DNA from: Escherichia phage vB_EcoM_DalCa
Length of the DNA: 64,000 nucleotides
Sequence record: NC_054908.1
Strand: one strand, 5' to 3'
Positions 17,977 to 28,055 of this stretch are shown here, piece after piece. The notes beneath the pieces are model-generated. The model worked only from the letters and a program-made list of their open reading frames with translations. It ran no database searches and was not told the DNA's origin. Made by a program: the position numbers and the translations under genes. The number at the start of each line of letters is the position of its first letter. The stretch's first letter is position 1.

Positions 17977-18270
17977 TTACTCACCTACCACTTCAGCGAT
18001 GATATTTTTGTTATTAAAGTTTTTATCGCAATACAGAACATAATTATACTGCATTACACCGCCAGACTTAAGCTGTTTTTGTACTTCAGCTTTCATTTCA
18101 GGACGATCGCGCTCAACAATATTCATAATATCCGCCTCAATTTGAGTTTCAACTTCAGTCTGATCTGCAGTCATAGACCATTCGCACAAATCTTTATCAT
18201 AACCTGCCATAGCAGGCTGAGTAGCACAAGAAGATAAAGCAAAAATTGTAGCAAAGATAAATTTTTTCAT
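17977..18270 (-). CDS. sp: Spackle periplasmic protein
   Basis: 97 aa as T4 Sp; signal peptide MKKFIFATIFALSSCATQPAMA. Confidence 0.8.
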   Translation of the reverse strand: MKKFIFATIFALSSCATQPAMAGYDKDLCEWSMTADQTEVETQIEADIMNIVERDRPEMKAEVQKQLKSGGVMQYNYVLYCDKNFNNKNIIAEVVGE

Positions 18271-18296
18271 GATAATCTCCTCAGTAGTTTATGTTT

Positions 18297-18328
18297 ATAT
18301 AGTATCTCAATTTCCAACAAAAGTAAAC
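18297..18328 (-). promoter_or_regulatory. T4-type early promoter upstream of sp
   Basis: minus strand GTTTAC then TACTATATAA. Confidence 0.5.
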
Positions 18329-18330
18329 AG

Positions 18331-18630
18331 TTATTTTAAAACTTCTGCGTAATCACATGTTACAAACTGTTTCTCTAGCTTAACGATCTTACGAAAATAC
18401 CTTTTACACTGACGAATCTGTCGCTTCGTAGGACGTACAGCAAACTTAATAAATTCCACTCGACCAAATGGAGGACTTTCTTCTGCTGGAATATCTAACA
18501 CCAATTCCCACGTATCTGAAATAAGTGCTTTGAATTGCGTATTTTTCCTGACGTTATACGGAGTAGGTTTAAATAAAACAATATGCATATTATCCTCGGC
18601 AATCCACTTCACACACTTTCTTGTCATCAA
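18331..18630 (-). CDS. hypothetical protein (61.4-like)
   Basis: 99 aa ORF between sp and dmd. Confidence 0.5.
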   Translation of the reverse strand: MMTRKCVKWIAEDNMHIVLFKPTPYNVRKNTQFKALISDTWELVLDIPAEESPPFGRVEFIKFAVRPTKRQIRQCKRYFRKIVKLEKQFVTCDYAEVLK

Positions 18631-18772
18631 TGAAAGCTTTAACTAATGCTTTATTAACTTCGGCATATTGAGTAGTAGCCCATTGAACGTCATCTTTCAT
18701 CATTGTAGTTTCTTTAGTAAACATGCTTTCATTCTTAAACCACCCCATAAAAACTACCTTTACCAATTCCAT
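18590..18772 (-). CDS. dmd: Dmd, discriminator of mRNA degradation (RnlA/LsoA antitoxin)
   Basis: 60 aa, matches T4 Dmd length and remembered sequence (MELVKVVFMGWFKNESMF...); directly downstream of gene 41. Confidence 0.8.
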   Translation of the reverse strand: MELVKVVFMGWFKNESMFTKETTMMKDDVQWATTQYAEVNKALVKAFIDDKKVCEVDCRG

Positions 18773-18800
18773 AACAATCTCCTCATTTAACCAACAAGAC

Positions 18801-18830
18801 TACTATACCATAGTCTTGTCAGCTTGTAAA
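18801..18830 (-). promoter_or_regulatory. T4-type early promoter upstream of dmd
   Basis: minus strand GTTTAC, 18 nt, TATAGT. Confidence 0.55.
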
Positions 18831-20258
18831 CTAAAATTTTAATTCATTTGCCAAAGCATCTAACTGAGCTCGAGTGGATTCATTTCTTTGATAGCGATTC
18901 TGCTCAGCCTGAATCTGTTGTGAACCTGCTACTTCACTCACTTCAGTTGGAGTAGAATCTTGTTCAATTTCTACCCATTTTTGATTTCCTTTTTGAACAC
19001 CCATCAAAAACTTATTCCACTTATTCTTATCACCATATCGTGATTTGATTTGCTTAATAAGTTGTTGTTCAGCAGCTGCTAGCTCCTCGGTTTCAATGAC
19101 CGCAAGCATAAAATCAGCTGTTGCTGGAAGACCAGCAGATTCTGCAATATCGCTCATGTTAACATCGGAAGAGTCCCAAGCTTGTTTACCAACCTGTGCT
19201 GCAGTCCAAAGAACAGTTTCGGTTTCAACAGCCAGAGCACGCAATTCCTCTGCGATAGCTTTAACAGTTGTGTAACTATTTTCTGAATAAACTCTAATAC
19301 GGCAAGATTTACAAATACCTAGATAGTCGACAATAATGATTGTTGGAACAAAATTCTTCTTGAGCTTTAATTCATTTAAAAGTGATCGAAATGTATTAGC
19401 GTCTGCTCCACCAGTAGGATATTGCTTAACGATTAAACGACCAAGGGTAGATTTCTCGCGCCATTTTTCCATTTTTCCTTTATACTCAGCGTAAGAAATA
19501 TGCCCGTCATCAATGTCATCAAGAGAAACATCAAGCATATTAGCATCAATACGCTTAGCACAGACTTCTTCTGCCATTTCCATGGAAATGTAAAGAACAT
19601 TGTGTCCGAGCTGCAAATAATCTGCTGCCAATGAACACAATCCTAATGACTTACCGACGTTAACGCCAGCCATTAAAACGTTCAGTGTTCCAGTCTCAGC
19701 TCCGCCTTTAGTAATTTTGTTTAGAATTCTGAGTTTAAATGGAACCTTACGAGCTTTATTCATATAAGATAGCCAACGTGCTTCGTAGTCATCCATCCAA
19801 TCATGACCAACGTAACTATCAAATGAAATAGATAATGCCTGGCGCATGATGTCAGGAATAGCACCAACATCTGGCATTTTCTTATTTCGTTTTTCCGGAG
19901 GAAGCTCAGCATTAGTTTGAATTTCGATTATTTTAGACGTAGCATTAAACATCGCCCTTTGCTGAACATATTTTTCTGTTTCTTTTATTAACCAACTGTG
20001 GTCTTCCGGAGAATCAGCCAGTTTTGAAATAAGTGTTTTTACACCAGAATATTCTGTTTCAGTAAATGAACTATTTTCTAATGCAACATTTAACGCATTA
20101 ATAGATGGAACGCTATGATACTCATTAACATGAGATTTAATTAATTTGAATGTATTTTTAGCTGGACCACTTTCAAAATATTCTGAATCCATATATGGCC
20201 AAACTTTTGAAAAATAAGCTTGATCAAATATGAGATGAGAAAGAATAATTTCTACCAC
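18831..20258 (-). CDS. 41: replicative DNA helicase gp41 (DnaB-like)
   Basis: 475 aa as T4 gp41; Walker A GVNVGKS. Confidence 0.9.
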   Translation of the reverse strand: MVEIILSHLIFDQAYFSKVWPYMDSEYFESGPAKNTFKLIKSHVNEYHSVPSINALNVALENSSFTETEYSGVKTLISKLADSPEDHSWLIKETEKYVQQRAMFNATSKIIEIQTNAELPPEKRNKKMPDVGAIPDIMRQALSISFDSYVGHDWMDDYEARWLSYMNKARKVPFKLRILNKITKGGAETGTLNVLMAGVNVGKSLGLCSLAADYLQLGHNVLYISMEMAEEVCAKRIDANMLDVSLDDIDDGHISYAEYKGKMEKWREKSTLGRLIVKQYPTGGADANTFRSLLNELKLKKNFVPTIIIVDYLGICKSCRIRVYSENSYTTVKAIAEELRALAVETETVLWTAAQVGKQAWDSSDVNMSDIAESAGLPATADFMLAVIETEELAAAEQQLIKQIKSRYGDKNKWNKFLMGVQKGNQKWVEIEQDSTPTEVSEVAGSQQIQAEQNRYQRNESTRAQLDALANELKF

Positions 20259-20267
20259 ACTTACTCC

Positions 20268-20630
20268 TTAAAAGAATTTAAACTTTTTCTTTGACCTTTT
20301 ATTGAATGCATCTTGCAGTTGCATTGTAATACATTTTTCTACATGAGGAGCTAACTCAGCTTTTCTTTCTTGGTCAAGAACAGCAAAGTCCATTACAACC
20401 TTTCCATCAACCCAATCCAGTTTAGTTACATACACTATATGTGTAGAACCATCTTCTAGTTTAATGACAATCTCCTGGATAACATTTTCCATGGCAGATT
20501 TAATTATCTTAAGAGACTCATTAAAAAGACGTTCTTTTCTTTCTTCTTCCCCCTCCGAAGAGGGGGATTCATCGATAATTTCTAGATCTAAATCTAAATC
20601 ATCTTTATTCATTAAATTCTTCCATATCAC
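20268..20630 (-). CDS. 40: gp40 head vertex assembly chaperone
   Basis: 120 aa ORF between uvsX and 41 as in T4. Confidence 0.65.
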   Translation of the reverse strand: MIWKNLMNKDDLDLDLEIIDESPSSEGEEERKERLFNESLKIIKSAMENVIQEIVIKLEDGSTHIVYVTKLDWVDGKVVMDFAVLDQERKAELAPHVEKCITMQLQDAFNKRSKKKFKFF

Positions 20631-21786
20631 TTAACTGTTCGAGGTCAGTTTCTAAATCAGCAGCTGATTTACTTTTACTTTCTGGAGATTTAAATTTTTC
20701 AACCTTTGAGTTAATCAATTCATCAACTTCAGCTTCAACAATTTCATTACTATCAATAGCACCTAACTGATAAGCACGTTTAATAGCATCTCGGAATGGT
20801 TGATGCTTAAATAAAGGACCCCAGAATGTAGTGCAGTTGGTATCTTTTGCACGCCAAGATTTTTCTTCGCGAATCATCTCGCCGGTTTCTTCATCAAGAA
20901 ATTCACGAGCATACCAACCATTTTTAGGTTTTACCACAAATCCTAATTCTAGAGCCATATCTAACAATCCAGAATAAGGATCGATACCACCGTCAAATTT
21001 AACATCAATAAAGAATTTACTTTTTTCTTTAACGGTACGAGATTTTTCTACATTTAGAACAAATTGATACCCCTGAAGATCAGAACCATCTTTAATCTGA
21101 CGCTTACCGATAATGAATACGGTATCAGCCGAATACATTACGCCTGTACCACCTGTCATCACGGTTTTACTAAACATTTCAATGGTTTCAATTGTATGGT
21201 TAACTGCAACACATGGAATATTTTTAATGCTAAAATAAGGAGTAACAATACGGAATAATGACTTCAGTGATTTAGCACGAGTCATATCTGCCACAGATTT
21301 TTCATTCAAGGCATCTTCAGTTTCTTTCTTAGAAGCCATATTACCAATTGAATCGATGAATACAATAACTTTTTCACCACGCTCAATAGTTTCAAGCTGA
21401 TTCACCATATCAATTTTCAGCTGTTCAACTGACTGGATTGGCGTATGAATTACTCGTTCTGGGTCAACTCCCATAGACTTAAGATAAGCCGGAGTGATAC
21501 CAAACTCTGAGTCATAGAACAAACAGATAGCATCAGGATACTTATTCAAATAAGCTGCTACCATTGTCAGTGACATATTAGATTTAAAATGTTTAGAAGG
21601 CCCTGCGAAAATAGTTAAACCAGACTGCATACCGCCATCAATCGCACCAGAAATAGCAATATTAAGCATTGGAATTTTTGTACGAATTACATCCTTTTCA
21701 TTAAAGAATTTAGATGTAGTCAGTTCAGCAGTCATTTTAGAAGTGGAAGCTTTAATCAAACGGGATTTTAAATCTGCAATAGACAT
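20605..21786 (-). CDS. uvsX: UvsX recombinase (RecA-like)
   Basis: 393 aa; N-terminus closely resembles T4 UvsX; RecA-like P-loop region. Confidence 0.9.
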   Translation of the reverse strand: MSIADLKSRLIKASTSKMTAELTTSKFFNEKDVIRTKIPMLNIAISGAIDGGMQSGLTIFAGPSKHFKSNMSLTMVAAYLNKYPDAICLFYDSEFGITPAYLKSMGVDPERVIHTPIQSVEQLKIDMVNQLETIERGEKVIVFIDSIGNMASKKETEDALNEKSVADMTRAKSLKSLFRIVTPYFSIKNIPCVAVNHTIETIEMFSKTVMTGGTGVMYSADTVFIIGKRQIKDGSDLQGYQFVLNVEKSRTVKEKSKFFIDVKFDGGIDPYSGLLDMALELGFVVKPKNGWYAREFLDEETGEMIREEKSWRAKDTNCTTFWGPLFKHQPFRDAIKRAYQLGAIDSNEIVEAEVDELINSKVEKFKSPESKSKSAADLETDLEQLSDMEEFNE

Positions 21787-21863
21787 TCATTTTTTCCATA
21801 GGCATCATTATATTTTCCTCACTGGTTAAAGATAGAGTAATTATAACACAATAAATTTAGGCA

Positions 21864-22706
21864 TTAATCAACTGCTATTGGATGAATAGCATTAAACTTA
21901 TGAAATGCTTCTGATTTTTCTTTACGCGAAACGCACATGCGAAGAACCTTTAATGGCTCGTCTTCTTCACCCAACGATTTTCGTTTTTCAATATTAGAAG
22001 TTTTCCAACGAGCTTGCTCTGGAAACTCTCTATTGATTTGCTCAAGCGCTCTATTATGTTTAGAATTACTACGAATTGAACTGCACCCTCCAGGAGCTTG
22101 TGCTTTTCCAGATACAACCAGATATTTGAACAAGGCCAAATGCGGATAACCTTGATTAATTAAATTGAGAAATGCATACATATCTTCGCACAAATCAATT
22201 TTTCCATACCCAATTTGTTCTGTCGTAAGTTTTCCAAGGTCATACCATGTATTCGTGAATCCATATGAATTTTCACGATAATTACCCCAAGATGAAGTAA
22301 TTTTAAAAATTGGTAGGCGAGCATGACCGTGATAATACCCACAATCCATGGCATCTTCGACGTATTGAATCAATTCATAGAACTGTTCACGAGTCAATTG
22401 ATTGACTTTATCCACACAACGACGATCATCTCTTTTTCGCATTGAACTCATACGAATAGTAGTATCATCGTCAATCATCCAGATTCGTTGACCTGCATAC
22501 ATATCAGTAATTGCTTTACGAGTACCGGCAATTCCATTAACATCATCAGGAATAGTTACAATTTTAGCTTTAGACCCATAGGCATCATAATAAGCTTTTT
22601 CTTCATGTTCACGTACTACGATATGAGGTTCATAATCAGTCGGAAACATATCAAGGGCAGAAACTGCCCCTACACGTTGATAGCTCGGAATTACGAATTG
22701 AATCAT
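21864..22706 (-). CDS. GT-A-fold glycosyltransferase at the beta-gt locus (possibly beta-glucosyl-HMC-alpha-glucosyltransferase type)
   Basis: 280 aa; N-terminal IPSYQR and DxD-like IDDDTT motifs; not similar to remembered T4 beta-gt (351 aa). Confidence 0.6.
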   Translation of the reverse strand: MIQFVIPSYQRVGAVSALDMFPTDYEPHIVVREHEEKAYYDAYGSKAKIVTIPDDVNGIAGTRKAITDMYAGQRIWMIDDDTTIRMSSMRKRDDRRCVDKVNQLTREQFYELIQYVEDAMDCGYYHGHARLPIFKITSSWGNYRENSYGFTNTWYDLGKLTTEQIGYGKIDLCEDMYAFLNLINQGYPHLALFKYLVVSGKAQAPGGCSSIRSNSKHNRALEQINREFPEQARWKTSNIEKRKSLGEEDEPLKVLRMCVSRKEKSEAFHKFNAIHPIAVD

Positions 22707-23344
22707 TTAAGTGCCTTACATTTATCAAAATGGTATCTTGTCATATTTGGCCCACGTCCTTTTAGTCCGCAATGCGGACATATTTTTTCTATCAAATTAT
22801 GAGGTTTTCCTTTACGATTTTTAGACATCGTTTCTTTAATTATTTTAGCTTTTTCTACGCCAAAAATTTCTTCATAAGTTTTACCAGAATTTTCCTTGGC
22901 TCGATTTATAATTCCATATGCCTGCTCATTTTTACCATACATTGGATTACCTTCGCCTTTCATTCTTTTAGAATGATCAGGACGCTTGATTCCACGAAAG
23001 GCATTTCCGCACTTATATCTTTCTTCTGGAGATAGTTTTTTACCGTACATTCCATTTAATTTGCCTGGAAAACTTCCTCCCCATGCTTCATTCTTTAAAT
23101 TATATGAATCCGGACAATTAGCAGCATCTAAACAAGTTAAAATAATTTCTTCAACCTGTCTAAACATTGGTCCTTCATATAATATTTCTTTATTAAAGGA
23201 TTTTATTCCATATTTCTTTTTAACATGTTGCCAAACTACACCCGAACCATCATAATTCGGGTTGTGACCATCATGACTTCCTATATACCACTTTTTAGTT
23301 TTAGGATGTTTATACTTATAAACATGCGGCACATTTACTTCCAT
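22703..23344 (-). CDS. GIY-YIG homing endonuclease (Seg-like)
   Basis: 213 aa; N-terminal VYKYKHPKTKKWYIGS GIY-YIG-like motif; NUMOD-like repeats GKKLSPEERYK, GNPMYGK, GKPHN; C-terminal CPHCG. Confidence 0.75.
   Translation of the reverse strand: MEVNVPHVYKYKHPKTKKWYIGSHDGHNPNYDGSGVVWQHVKKKYGIKSFNKEILYEGPMFRQVEEIILTCLDAANCPDSYNLKNEAWGGSFPGKLNGMYGKKLSPEERYKCGNAFRGIKRPDHSKRMKGEGNPMYGKNEQAYGIINRAKENSGKTYEEIFGVEKAKIIKETMSKNRKGKPHNLIEKICPHCGLKGRGPNMTRYHFDKCKALK
22703..23344 (-). mobile_element. free-standing homing endonuclease gene inserted between glycosyltransferase gene and gene 42
   Basis: HEG overlaps the upstream gene by 4 nt and gene 42 by 10 nt; no ORF lies here in T4 gene order. Confidence 0.65.
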
Positions 23345-24075
23345 TTTCCAGTATAATCCTTTTTAGCAATATGAGTCTCACCGGTGTTCCACCAATGGTC
23401 AACTAAATAAAACTGATTTTCGTACACATGAAGACTTCCAACGTTCCATATAATAGAACCTGCTTTATATTGCCGCGATGGGTCGCCTGCATTCAAATCA
23501 GATACTAATTTATCTAGTACGTATTTTTGCCAAGCATAATCATTACGATAGCCTGCCCAGCAATCATTGCTTCTCATGCTAACAACCGCATTGACTTTCT
23601 TATCACGAATCAGGTACTGTACTGTATTAGTACACATGAAATCTGACATACCATCTTTATTGTAGTCAAATTGCATGGATGGACGAGTATAAATCATGAT
23701 ACCACGTCGAGAATCAGGATTTTGACCAAGTTCAGCTAAACACATATCATACTGGGCATAGTTATCTTCTGACCAAATAGCCCAACCATAATTCGAGTTA
23801 ATTTCGCCTTTAGAAGATGCTACCTGCTGCCAAATCTTTGGTGTTTCACCTGGAATATCTTTAACAAACAAACTCTTAGATTTATACCATTCAAGTTCAC
23901 GCTGAATGTATTCATCATTAAGAGCGCCAAAAATAAACGGTTCATCTGCTACAAATGATGCGCCAATAATTTCAATAGTTTTAACACCGGTTTTATCAAC
24001 TACGAAATCTTTTTCTTTTAATGCAAGCCCCAAATGAAGACGGATTTCTTCAACTGTCATAGAGTCACTAATCAT
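23335..24075 (-). CDS. 42: dCMP hydroxymethylase gp42
   Basis: 246 aa as T4 gp42; thymidylate-synthase-like fold expected. Confidence 0.9.
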   Translation of the reverse strand: MISDSMTVEEIRLHLGLALKEKDFVVDKTGVKTIEIIGASFVADEPFIFGALNDEYIQRELEWYKSKSLFVKDIPGETPKIWQQVASSKGEINSNYGWAIWSEDNYAQYDMCLAELGQNPDSRRGIMIYTRPSMQFDYNKDGMSDFMCTNTVQYLIRDKKVNAVVSMRSNDCWAGYRNDYAWQKYVLDKLVSDLNAGDPSRQYKAGSIIWNVGSLHVYENQFYLVDHWWNTGETHIAKKDYTGKWK

Positions 24076-24082
24076 TTAAACC

Positions 24083-24232
24083 TCAATTGATACATTCATA
24101 TTTAACTTGTAACAGTAATAAACCCCACCCTATGATAAGAGTTGGAATCATAAGAGGAACCGTTACACTATAGTATATACTTATTATAATCATCAAGATT
24201 AAAAGCAACACTGCTATAATTTTGCTTTTCAT
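24083..24232 (-). CDS. small hydrophobic protein
   Basis: 49 aa ORF (MKSKIIAVLLLILMIIISIYY...), codon-checked; ATG overlaps imm stop as ATGA. Confidence 0.4.
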   Translation of the reverse strand: MKSKIIAVLLLILMIIISIYYSVTVPLMIPTLIIGWGLLLLQVKYECIN

Positions 24233-24480
24233 TCCTTCTCTCTGATGATAATTACCTGATTTGGCTGTGCAGACTTTTTAGTTTCACCCGCAATTGACCA
24301 AATAAATGTAATAAACCAACCAATAATTGACCAGTTAAACAGCAAAGATGTGAAAAAGATTCCTACTGTCGATTTTGACCCACGCATCAAGGCGATAAAC
24401 CATGGAAGCATGTATATAATAATAGCCAACACACCTGAAACTAAAACCATAAAAATTGAACCTGCTACTAAAGTTTCCAT
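24229..24480 (-). CDS. imm: Imm, immunity to superinfection membrane protein
   Basis: 83 aa as T4 Imm; two hydrophobic helices; position next to gene 42. Confidence 0.75.
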   Translation of the reverse strand: METLVAGSIFMVLVSGVLAIIIYMLPWFIALMRGSKSTVGIFFTSLLFNWSIIGWFITFIWSIAGETKKSAQPNQVIIIREKE

Positions 24481-24487
24481 GTTTTCC

Positions 24488-24868
24488 TCACTTAGTCAAA
24501 TTTTTTACACATGAATTATAAGAATTCACTACATACTCCATCGGAGCATTTTTACCTGTACGCCATTGGTAATTATTAGCCCAATTAGCCCAAAGCTCGG
24601 CGCAGTAGTTTTCAATTTTTTCTTCGCGTGTAATTACATCCGAATTACGATATGCTTGAGCAGATTCATCTGGACGAATAGCTTCGTCAAAATTCGCCTG
24701 CATTTGTTCTACTGTCTGTTTTGGAGCTTCTTTATAACACTTGACATTAGGATTATAAAACTTGCTTGAACAGTTTACAATTTTTCCTACATCAGACTGA
24801 TTTACTACCGGTCCTTGAGCTACACAACCAGTAAGACCTAATGCAATAACCAAAATAGCGATTTTCAT
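24488..24868 (-). CDS. putative lipoprotein
   Basis: 126 aa; signal peptide with LTGC lipobox. Confidence 0.5.
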   Translation of the reverse strand: MKIAILVIALGLTGCVAQGPVVNQSDVGKIVNCSSKFYNPNVKCYKEAPKQTVEQMQANFDEAIRPDESAQAYRNSDVITREEKIENYCAELWANWANNYQWRTGKNAPMEYVVNSYNSCVKNLTK

Positions 24869-24878
24869 AATAATTTCC

Positions 24879-25127
24879 TCAAATACAAGTAGTAATTACT
24901 CCAGTAGTGCTTACACAGATATTACCTAATTGAACACCCAGCGTTCCATTAGTATTCATATGAAGATTATCATCAATTTTTGTTGATACTTTACCATTCA
25001 TGTGAATAACAGTATTAGATTCAATCACATTCTGAGTATCATTTTCAACACTAACAAATGGAACTGCTGCTAATGCAACTAAACAAACTGCTAAGCATCC
25101 CATAACAATTTTCATTTTATTCTCCAA
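24879..25127 (-). CDS. secreted/periplasmic small protein
   Basis: 82 aa; N-terminal signal peptide. Confidence 0.5.
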   Translation of the reverse strand: MENKMKIVMGCLAVCLVALAAVPFVSVENDTQNVIESNTVIHMNGKVSTKIDDNLHMNTNGTLGVQLGNICVSTTGVITTCI

Positions 25128-25153
25128 ATCCGTATCAGTAGTTGATAGTTGTA

Positions 25154-25182
25154 TAGTACCATGGAAGAACAGTCTTGTAAAC
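25154..25182 (-). promoter_or_regulatory. T4-type early promoter
   Basis: minus strand GTTTAC, 17 nt, TACTAT; part of repeated module. Confidence 0.55.
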
Positions 25183-25269
25183 AGTTTTGTGAAAATTTTT
25201 TAGGGAATTCTAAAGGTCCAGAACCATCTGTTTTTCATAAGTATAGATTTATATTACTTGTATGAAAAA

Positions 25270-25285
25270 GGGACCCGGAGGTCCC
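25270..25285 (-). terminator. stem-loop downstream of gene 43
   Basis: gggacccggaggtccc, 6 bp GC stem. Confidence 0.55.
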
Positions 25286-25298
25286 TAGATTTATTCTA

Positions 25299-27995
25299 TC
25301 AGCCAAACAGGAAGTCTAACGAAGCTTTTTCTTCATAGTCCATACCTGCCGATTCACACATACCCGCAAGCGGTTTAACAAACGATTTTTGGAACAAAGT
25401 TGAGTAGTCAATCCAAGATAGTACATCAGAACGAATTTCTTTTGGAAGTTCTGTACCTGATGGCCAAGCAATGCACTTGTCACCAAATGGATTTCCTTCA
25501 CGCAATGGAAGGACCATTACTTTATTTCCATCCAAAATTGGAGCTACACCCAGACCACTAACAGCTCGACGATAAGTTAGCACACCACGAATATGGAACG
25601 GACATTTAAATCCTGGCCAACCTTTATCATCATATTTCGCTATATCGTTCGCAGTTTTTACTTCAGCAATAACTTTATAGTCAAGTTGACGATATTCTTT
25701 CTCGAAGTTCTTGTAATATTCTTGGACAGACTCTTCACCTTCCTGAAGAATACGACGAATACTTTCTTCGAGAGCTTCTTGGACCGCTTTAGGCGTTGAA
25801 CTCTGCTGAGTTTCCATACCCATGATTTTTAGATGTGGTTCAGCAAATCGCTTATCTTCCATATCATAAACGTTCAGAGCATAACGCTTTTTCGCTTTCC
25901 AAAATCCACCAACGCCCTTTGAACCAAGTGGAGGGCAAGAAATAGCTTCACGGTCCATATGCATCAGATGCTCGCGGTTATTCATATAATCACATAACTC
26001 ACGATATGCAACATCAATCATAGGTTCCATCTTTTTCTTACCGAACTGATTCATGAATTCAACTAAATCGTTCTGCTCTTTGAATCGGTCAAGACCAACT
26101 TTTTCAATAACTTTATCTACACAAACATATACCGAATCAGTATCACCTGCTGCGATGAAATCTTCACCATTAGTTCCGCACACTTTATTCAGATACTCAT
26201 TAATTTTACGAGCAATCCACTGAATACCAACTTGACCAAAAATTGTGATAGCAGTAGCATTTCGCAAATCATAGTAACGGAAATGAATATTACCAAGAGC
26301 ACCGTAAAGGCTGTTAATAAGAATTTTACGGTTCAGCTGATTTGTATTAGCAAGTGTAGCCGCTTTTTCACATTCCTCAATCAGACTATTGAGAACAGAT
26401 TCAGTATAATTCGATAGTTCATTTAAGAAATCATCACTGAACTTAACATATCGTTCAACTTCAGGTTTAGTTGAACAAGACCCTGCGCCTTTCATAATAA
26501 TCTTTTTAATAGCTTCGGCATTCATTTCTTCAGCGAACATTTTCTTTTTCCAATCTTTACGCTGGAAAAATACTTTAGCGATTTCCTTTGGAATGATACC
26601 TTCTTGATGCTTATCATACATCCATCCATTCGGAGAACAAGAATATTCATCACTCGGTTTAGGAGCTGTTCCTGCGATATATTCATGAATTGGATGAACT
26701 TTAAACTGACCACGAATAGTCTCAGGACTAATGTTAACCTGACGAATAATGCTAGGATACAGAGACGTCAAGTCAAAACTCATAATATATCGACGAGCAA
26801 TTGGTTTAGGTTCAAATACAAATGCACCTGGAAAACTTTGTTTAACGTGCGAACCTTGTTGAGGAATAACCTTATGTTCACCTTTCAATGAGTTAAAAAT
26901 AATAGCATCCCAGGTTTTAATAGGACTCATTACACCAGAAAAAGGCATTTTAGCGTAATAAGACATACTTAAAACTAGATCGATAAACCCGCGAATTTTA
27001 TCAATTGCTTGAACTGATTCTACGTCAATGATGTTATAACTAATATATCGTTGATGATTAGTCTCACGAAGTTTATTAATAGGACCATCGTACGGCAATT
27101 TACCTTTTTTGGTTTCGTGCTGAGCAACTGATTCCAAAGAGAATGATGGCAAATTAGTAAATGCGAATTTTTTGTACAAATCTAAATAATCAAGAATAGA
27201 TACGCCATCAATCGAATAAATTTCTTTGCTACCGTACATATTTTGAATTAGTTTAGATTTTACTCGACCGATTGGAGAGAAGCGTTTCATACTACGTTCA
27301 CCAAGAACCATTTTAACACGATTCATGATATACGGAACGTCAAATCCCTCAATATTCCAACCAGTAAAAATAGCAGGTCGTTTCTGTTCCCAGAGATTAA
27401 TATATTCCATGAGCATATCACGCTCATTATCAAATGGCATATAAATTACTCGGTCAAGAATTTCTTGAGGAACTTCATCACCACCTTCACAGTCAAGTTT
27501 AGCAGCTAACTTTGCATCCCATTTTGATACTGAACCGTACATTGAATTCAACAAATCAAAGACGTAAAAACGATCGTCAATTGAATCATAATGAGTGATA
27601 GCATCAATTTCATATTCCGCTTTCATTGGGTCAGGAAATTTATCGCCAGTAACCTCAATGTCACAGTTAGCTACACGAACAAATTTTCGGTCATAAACAA
27701 TTTCTGAACCATATGTATCACTGATATAAGCGAGTTTAAAATCGTTCATACCGAGAGCTTCGAGACCGATGTCTTCCATTCGTTTCATCCAATCTCGAGC
27801 ATCTTTCATTGATGGAAATTTTTGAGGAGCGCAGTTTTTACCATAAATGTCTTTGTACTTTGACTCTTCCTTACAATGTCTAAACATAGTTGGAAGATAT
27901 TCTACTTCACGAGTACGTTCCTTTCCGTTTTCATCAATATAACGTTCAACAATGTTATTTCCGACTGTTTCAATAGAGATATAAAATTCTTTCAT
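25299..27995 (-). CDS. 43: DNA polymerase gp43 (family B)
   Basis: 898 aa as T4 gp43; family B motifs (DxxSLYPS-like, YGDTDS). Confidence 0.95.
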   Translation of the reverse strand: MKEFYISIETVGNNIVERYIDENGKERTREVEYLPTMFRHCKEESKYKDIYGKNCAPQKFPSMKDARDWMKRMEDIGLEALGMNDFKLAYISDTYGSEIVYDRKFVRVANCDIEVTGDKFPDPMKAEYEIDAITHYDSIDDRFYVFDLLNSMYGSVSKWDAKLAAKLDCEGGDEVPQEILDRVIYMPFDNERDMLMEYINLWEQKRPAIFTGWNIEGFDVPYIMNRVKMVLGERSMKRFSPIGRVKSKLIQNMYGSKEIYSIDGVSILDYLDLYKKFAFTNLPSFSLESVAQHETKKGKLPYDGPINKLRETNHQRYISYNIIDVESVQAIDKIRGFIDLVLSMSYYAKMPFSGVMSPIKTWDAIIFNSLKGEHKVIPQQGSHVKQSFPGAFVFEPKPIARRYIMSFDLTSLYPSIIRQVNISPETIRGQFKVHPIHEYIAGTAPKPSDEYSCSPNGWMYDKHQEGIIPKEIAKVFFQRKDWKKKMFAEEMNAEAIKKIIMKGAGSCSTKPEVERYVKFSDDFLNELSNYTESVLNSLIEECEKAATLANTNQLNRKILINSLYGALGNIHFRYYDLRNATAITIFGQVGIQWIARKINEYLNKVCGTNGEDFIAAGDTDSVYVCVDKVIEKVGLDRFKEQNDLVEFMNQFGKKKMEPMIDVAYRELCDYMNNREHLMHMDREAISCPPLGSKGVGGFWKAKKRYALNVYDMEDKRFAEPHLKIMGMETQQSSTPKAVQEALEESIRRILQEGEESVQEYYKNFEKEYRQLDYKVIAEVKTANDIAKYDDKGWPGFKCPFHIRGVLTYRRAVSGLGVAPILDGNKVMVLPLREGNPFGDKCIAWPSGTELPKEIRSDVLSWIDYSTLFQKSFVKPLAGMCESAGMDYEEKASLDFLFG

Positions 27996-28055
27996 AGATA
28001 TTCCTTAGTTTATAGCCCGAGTTATTAGGCTCTTGATATATTATACTCCAAATAA

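Follow-up and report, generated by a model that had tools for sequence, protein, structure and literature searches.

Escherichia phage vB_EcoM_DalCa very probably carries a T2/T6-type beta-glucosyl-HMC-alpha-glucosyltransferase gene in the cassette slot of T4 beta-gt

The closest known relatives of the gene considered here are the ba-gt genes of phages T2 and T6, whose cloning and sequencing date from 1993 (Winkler & Rueger, NAR 21:1500, as cited in PMC11946311). In T-even phages hm-dCMP is produced by gene 42, and alpha-gt attaches glucose to the hmC of the DNA in alpha linkage; in T2 and T6 the ba-gt product then extends this with a second, beta-1,6-linked glucose. The resulting gentiobiosyl-hmC makes up ~5% of the cytosines of T2 and 72% of those of T6 (PMC6024577, PMC13216743, PMC13390438). 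A table in Thomas et al. 2018 (Viruses) lists 12 RB phages with both a-gt and ba-gt (PMC6024577), and the T2/T6 enzymes have been assigned to Pfam family PF20691, with a GT-A fold predicted by AF3 and a position sister to GT2 (NAR 2026; PMC13216743). Among T-even phages the combination of alpha-GT with TAGT is common, whereas the alpha plus beta pair of T4 is rare, found in 6 of 753 genomes (PMC13216743), and TAGT has been described as lying “at the position syntenic with” T4 beta-GT (AEM 2026; PMC13390438). The products have also been seen directly in phage DNA by HPLC/MS, with gentiobiosyl-mdC detected in Solly, QOTSP, EL, and T6 (PMC13390438). Solly, QOTSP and others contain about one third hmdC and two thirds alpha-gentiobiosyl-mdC, EL, BGP, and Geo contain hmdC, alpha-glc-mdC, and gentiobiosyl-mdC at ∼1:2:2, and the beta-glucosyl form was found in none of Solly, QOTSP, EL, BGP, or Geo (PMC13390438).

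Several other systems frame the comparison. T4 beta-gt (PF09198, GT-B, PDB 1JG7) sits in the same cassette slot between gene 42 and uvsX, and like ba-gt it uses UDP-glucose as donor and forms a beta linkage on modified phage DNA. The two differ in that T4 beta-gt is a 351-aa GT-B enzyme with hmC itself as the acceptor, while ba-gt is a 280-aa GT-A enzyme acting on alpha-glucosyl-hmC. In RB69, ORF003c/Aat is an arabinosyltransferase candidate with a predicted GT-B fold (PMC6024577). The TET/JBP-associated glycosyltransferases share the Pfam family and the R11, DDD, ED, and GG motifs with ba-gt, and are paired with TET/JBP oxygenases and thought to glycosylate the hydroxymethyl base directly; in DalCa, by contrast, gene 42 would supply hmC as a nucleotide, and the glucose would be added to a sugar that the base already bears. 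According to PMC7968844, the TAGT family described by Iyer et al. (2013) is related to the C-terminal domain of GREB1. Inverting GT-A glycosyltransferases of the GT2 family (BcsA 9fmv, TarP 6h1j, and the chondroitin and hyaluronan synthases) are also counted among the closest known systems.

We examined a 64,000-nucleotide stretch of the DalCa genome (NC_054908.1), hereafter the window, in which an earlier note, made from the letters alone, had drawn attention to a 280-aa protein with GT-A hallmarks and had asked for a comparison with the T2/T6 enzymes. Using reference ba-gt and beta-gt genes drawn from the T2, T6, and T4 records, the ORF was found to be identical over its full length to T2 ba-gt at 276 of 280 residues (99%) and to T6 ba-gt at 274 of 280 (98%), and the protein of Shigella phage JK23 is 100% identical to it. 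A megablast search of 50,697 phage records matched the gene in 477, ∼473 of them at ≥90% identity and usually under the label “beta-glucosyl-HMC-alpha-glucosyl-transferase”; identical copies (100%) occur in Escherichia phage G4498, Shigella phage JK23, WL-3, and several Yersinia and Salmonella isolates. At the protein level tblastn matched 687 records, among them more distant relatives from Klebsiella and Enterobacter phages (∼65% identity) and from a Serratia phage (48%). Matches in so many records, at both the DNA and the protein level, lie far beyond chance and establish this as a real gene. Profile searches agree: PHROG 842, which is named for the ba-gt enzyme, covers residues 1-275 (E=2.8e-89), and Pfam PF20691 (TAGT, TET-associated glycosyltransferase) scores 38.1 bits against a gathering cut-off of 27.5, with residues 3-207 corresponding to profile positions 2-205 of 205; NCBIfam offers no model for the protein. 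We therefore read the ORF, with a probability of about 94%, as a T2/T6-type beta-glucosyl-HMC-alpha-glucosyltransferase that would add the second glucose to alpha-glucosyl-hmC DNA, its catalysis being taken from the literature. The coordinates of the gene, its motifs, and its partners are collected in Table 1.

Table 1. Features of the DalCa window that bear on the ba-gt assignment, with the T2 and T6 reference alleles
Feature	Position	Strand	Evidence or remark
uvsX, flanking landmark	20605..21786	minus	Pfam T4_UVSX_C E=4.7e-39, and RecA
ba-gt, predicted beta-glucosyl-HMC-alpha-glucosyltransferase (TAGT family, GT-A fold), 280 aa	21864..22706	minus	ATG to TAA
E174-D175 “ED” motif	22182..22187	minus	candidate catalytic base of an inverting GT-A enzyme
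IDDDTT, residues 78-83	22458..22475	minus	
DDD, residues 79-81	22464..22472	minus	DXD motif, putative metal and UDP-sugar diphosphate binding
IPSYQR, residues 6-11	22674..22691	minus	strand beta-1 and following loop, putative nucleotide-sugar binding motif
Seg-like GIY-YIG homing endonuclease ORF, 213 aa	22703..23344	minus	PHROG 314 E=8.1e-30; inserted DNA ∼22709..23338
gene 42, dCMP hydroxymethylase, hmC precursor, 246 aa	23335..24075	minus	Pfam Thymidylat_synt E=1.3e-14
alpha-gt, DNA alpha-glucosyltransferase (GT-B), 400 aa	34950..36152	minus	Pfam AGT PF11440 E=8.4e-237, full length
T2 ba-gt	L003:3581-4423 (PV958097)		R11H
T2 ba-gt	L006:7295-8137 (LC348380)		R11H
T6 ba-gt	L005:7138-7980 (MH550421)		Q10 amber
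T6 ba-gt	L001:3001-3840 (NC_054907)		DDD to DD

The hallmarks on which the earlier reading rested, IPSYQR and IDDDTT, were both located in the ORF, and a family alignment shows how they relate to the TAGT enzymes at large. When 1.84 billion cluster representatives were searched exhaustively with HMMER, 330 clusters emerged at E ≤1e-3, compared with 11 from a word-indexed protein search. We aligned 66 full-length members, for the most part 20-35% identical to the DalCa protein, and all 66 match PF20691. Residues R11, D80, D175, G186, and G207 are invariant among them, and I6, P7, D79, D81, G206, R212, and P229 are near-invariant (≥90%). From this conservation, the two hallmarks are exactly the conserved N-terminal and DXD motifs of the family. 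DalCa ba-gt keeps every invariant and near-invariant residue in an intact reading frame.

The AlphaFold2 model, for which 10 sequences were aligned, has a mean pLDDT of 69.9 and a pTM of 0.72; the N-terminal, Rossmann-like half is confident, while loops 126-151 and 194-211 are of low confidence. The DXD motif follows strand E74-77 of the model, and the protein combines this motif with the GT-A fold, a single Rossmann-like nucleotide-diphospho-sugar transferase fold. Searches of the PDB with the single sequence and with the 66-member profile gave chance matches only, which indicates that no member of the TAGT family has a solved structure, and it is for this reason that we infer the catalytic residues rather than read them from coordinates. 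The GT2 motif “IPxYN” is comparable to IPSYQR, and general knowledge of GT-A enzymes suggests a role for it in binding the sugar nucleotide. DDD(79-81) would likewise be the site for the metal and the UDP diphosphate. D175, ∼95 residues after the DXD motif, is a candidate catalytic base by analogy with general GT2 architecture, and in the GT2 enzymes SpsA and BcsA an acidic base is similarly spaced after DXD.

The breakpoints of the cassette were mapped by blastn of window positions 18000-28000 against the T2, T6, and T4 reference loci, which also confirmed the gene 42/ba-gt junctions as read by eye. Homology to T4 (∼94%) runs as far as 21774, a short way into the start of uvsX, and picks up again at 23343, where gene 42 ends. 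Between these breakpoints T4 has beta-gt and segA, while the window has ba-gt and a different seg-like gene. Viewed against T4 (L002:2570-4500), the stretch 21775..23342 is a clean cassette swap between T4 and T2/T6-type phages, with breakpoints at the gene 42 stop and the first uvsX codons. The two versions of the cassette each pair a glucosyltransferase with a GIY-YIG seg gene, in reversed order and with sequences unrelated save for a weak SegA similarity. Over 18000-26900 blastn shows the window to be colinear with T2 and T6, apart from a 630-bp insertion at 22709..23338. The position of ba-gt upstream of uvsX and its partners alpha-gt and gene 42 are alike in T2, T6, and DalCa, and of these three only DalCa has the insertion. 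A scan of 21600..24300 for promoters and terminators stayed at background level, with 14 promoter-like sites against 11.4 expected and 2 terminator-like sites against 1.1. On the far side of gene 42, the minus-strand interval up to the DNA polymerase (24083..25127) holds small membrane-protein ORFs of 49 aa, imm (83 aa), imm.1 (126 aa), and 82 aa; the last of these (24879..25127) lies in a stretch, 24869..25101, for which blastn finds no match in the T4 and T6 loci used.

The insertion carries the homing endonuclease ORF, which shares 36% identity with T4 SegA along 111 aa (E=3e-9). The earlier note had placed the glycosyltransferase between uvsX and gene 42; it does lie upstream of uvsX and downstream of gene 42, but the endonuclease ORF stands between it and gene 42. 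T2 and T6 have the stop of gene 42 overlapping the start of ba-gt (AAATGA), while in the window the endonuclease ORF begins within the last codons of gene 42 and its own stop overlaps the ba-gt start as ATGA. T2, T6, and Solly lack the insertion; 76 phage records have it, every time adjoining gene 42. Several Klebsiella phages also have a GIY-YIG endonuclease annotated beside the TAGT gene, which suggests a recurrent homing site. The 23339..24880 block is ∼94% identical to T2/T6, compared with ∼97% for 18000..22708, and co-conversion around a homing site would be expected to leave such a tract of higher divergence beside the insertion. At the 3′ end of gene 42 (23339..23480), the last ∼100 nt look more diverged from T2/T6 than the ba-gt side.

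The window also encodes the partners that a gentiobiosylation pathway would need. The gene 42 region is 94% identical at the nucleotide level to that of T4 and is labelled dCMP hydroxymethylase in JK23, and the alpha-gt that the earlier note had reported is borne out by its Pfam AGT match and by identity to T6 a-gt at 366 of 400 residues (92%). Both co-occur with ba-gt in the 64-kb window, in which tblastn with T4 beta-gt finds no T4-type beta-gt. In the proposed pathway, gene 42 would form 5-hydroxymethyl-dCMP, which would be built into the DNA at replication. The GT-B enzyme alpha-gt would then glucosylate hmC in alpha linkage with UDP-glucose as the donor, and its product would be the acceptor for ba-gt, a GT-A enzyme predicted to place a second glucose from UDP-glucose in beta-1,6 linkage onto the alpha-glucose, yielding alpha-gentiobiosyl-hmC. 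In this last step DDD(79-81) would hold the metal and the UDP diphosphate, with D175 the likely catalytic base. An inverting GT-A mechanism fits this chemistry, since an alpha-linked UDP-glucose donor gives a beta-linked product.

What the DNA of DalCa carries can be predicted from phages whose DNA has been analyzed. DalCa ba-gt differs from the Solly enzyme by two conservative changes only, K46R and V50I, and from the EL enzyme by seven substitutions, and because Solly is the nearer of the two, a T6/Solly-type pattern is our best prediction. Judged by sequence, the DNA should contain roughly two thirds gentiobiosyl-hmC and one third bare hmC, in proportions that we infer from relatives, with little mono-alpha-glucosyl-hmC and no beta-glucosyl-hmC. 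The exact proportions in DalCa are uncertain, because the ratio of glucosyl to gentiobiosyl forms varies among relatives (1:2:2 in EL compared with the Solly pattern). Taken together, orthology with T2/T6, the presence of alpha-gt, the lack of a T4-type beta-gt in the window, and the Solly HPLC/MS data support the earlier expectation of an hmC glycosylation unlike that of T4.

The reference alleles themselves differ at residues of interest. R11, invariant in the family, is changed to histidine (CGT to CAT) in every T2 record and in the T2-like phage SV76, and the first 60 nt of ba-gt take their exact T2 form in these 8 records alone. In one T6 record (MH550421) Q10 is an amber codon (CAG to TAG) and “ggt” is annotated from M20 as 261 aa, while in another (NC_054907) an in-frame loss of one GAT from GATGATGAT reduces the DXD motif from DDD to DD. 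Either these T6 lesions are genuine mutations of laboratory stocks, or they stem from errors in sequencing or assembly. The window has neither R11H, nor the Q10 amber, nor the D81 deletion, and its codon 11 (22674..22676) encodes arginine. The T2-private R11H may explain the observation, now 60 years old, that gentiobiosyl-hmC reaches only ∼5% in T2 compared with ∼72% in T6, in which case R11 in the window would represent the “active” state.

Since the cassette position is that of T4 beta-gt, from gene 42 to uvsX, the ORF might instead be a diverged functional equivalent of that enzyme, placing a single beta-glucose directly on hmC and leaving a T4-like mono-glucosyl pattern. TAGT homologs do occur in phages that have no alpha- or beta-gt, and the family may include enzymes that act directly on the base (PMC13216743). 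Yet BLASTP finds no similarity between the DalCa protein and T4 beta-gt (351 aa, AF158101; best E=2.2), on which ground a diverged T4 beta-gt was rejected, and PF09198 is not found by a Pfam scan that returns E=9.4e-98 for T4 beta-gt itself, in keeping with the lack of resemblance that the earlier note had described. The difference in fold class (GT-A vs GT-B), the 98-99% identity to the T2/T6 enzymes, and the lack of beta-glucosyl-hmC by MS in near-identical phages (PMC13390438) also argue against a beta-gt equivalent, which we regard as extremely improbable. An arabinosyltransferase, raised in the earlier note, finds as little room. Donor specificity is unreadable from sequence, so another sugar, such as the arabinose of the RB69 type, or a linkage other than that of the T6 enzyme might be imagined, but BLASTP against the RB69 candidate ORF003c, itself predicted to be GT-B (PMC6024577), gives no similarity (best E=1.1), and an RB69-type arabinosyltransferase was rejected on that basis. 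With an enzyme two conservative changes away from that of Solly, whose DNA carries gentiobiose, and a locus colinear with T2 and T6 over 18000-26900, a different sugar or linkage is likewise exceedingly doubtful.

It might also be supposed that the gene is inactive or poorly expressed, for instance through the endonuclease insertion upstream, leaving DNA that is mainly mono-alpha-glucosylated as in T2. The R11 substitution in T2 and the different lesions in two T6 records imply that the gene tolerates damage, and the endonuclease gene comes between gene 42 and ba-gt, which are translationally overlapped in T2/T6. The intact frame and the retention of the invariant and near-invariant residues speak against this reading, and led us to reject a pseudogene; moreover, the endonuclease stop overlaps the ba-gt start by ATGA just as gene 42 does in T2, which argues that translational coupling is preserved, and the same arrangement recurs in 76 phage records. 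An inactive or poorly expressed ba-gt is thus highly improbable. A broader departure, in which the window allele would be unlike the T6 enzyme, either by using another acceptor or linkage or through expression altered by the insertion, and would give a ratio of mono- to di-glucosyl forms unlike both T2 and T6, we consider very unlikely.

The T2/T6-type assignment thus identifies the ba-gt of the window as an ordinary, already characterised gene, and the earlier reading of it is correct. Its GT-A fold, its position syntenic with T4 beta-gt, and the altered modification pattern have all been published before (1993; Viruses 2018; NAR 2026; AEM 2026), and because alpha-GT with TAGT is the common state (PMC13216743), the window represents the rule among T-even phages and not an exception. 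Its value lies in correct annotation: DalCa would be a T2/T6-type Tequatrovirus, in whose DNA alpha-gentiobiosyl-hmC is expected rather than the T4 mix of alpha- and beta-mono-glucosyl forms. A gentiobiosyl pattern would predict how the phage behaves towards McrBC, type IV enzymes of the GmrSD/BrxU type, Brig1-type glycosylases, and CRISPR effectors, and would alter how sensitive it is to defences directed at glucose, such as Brig1 and GmrSD-type enzymes.
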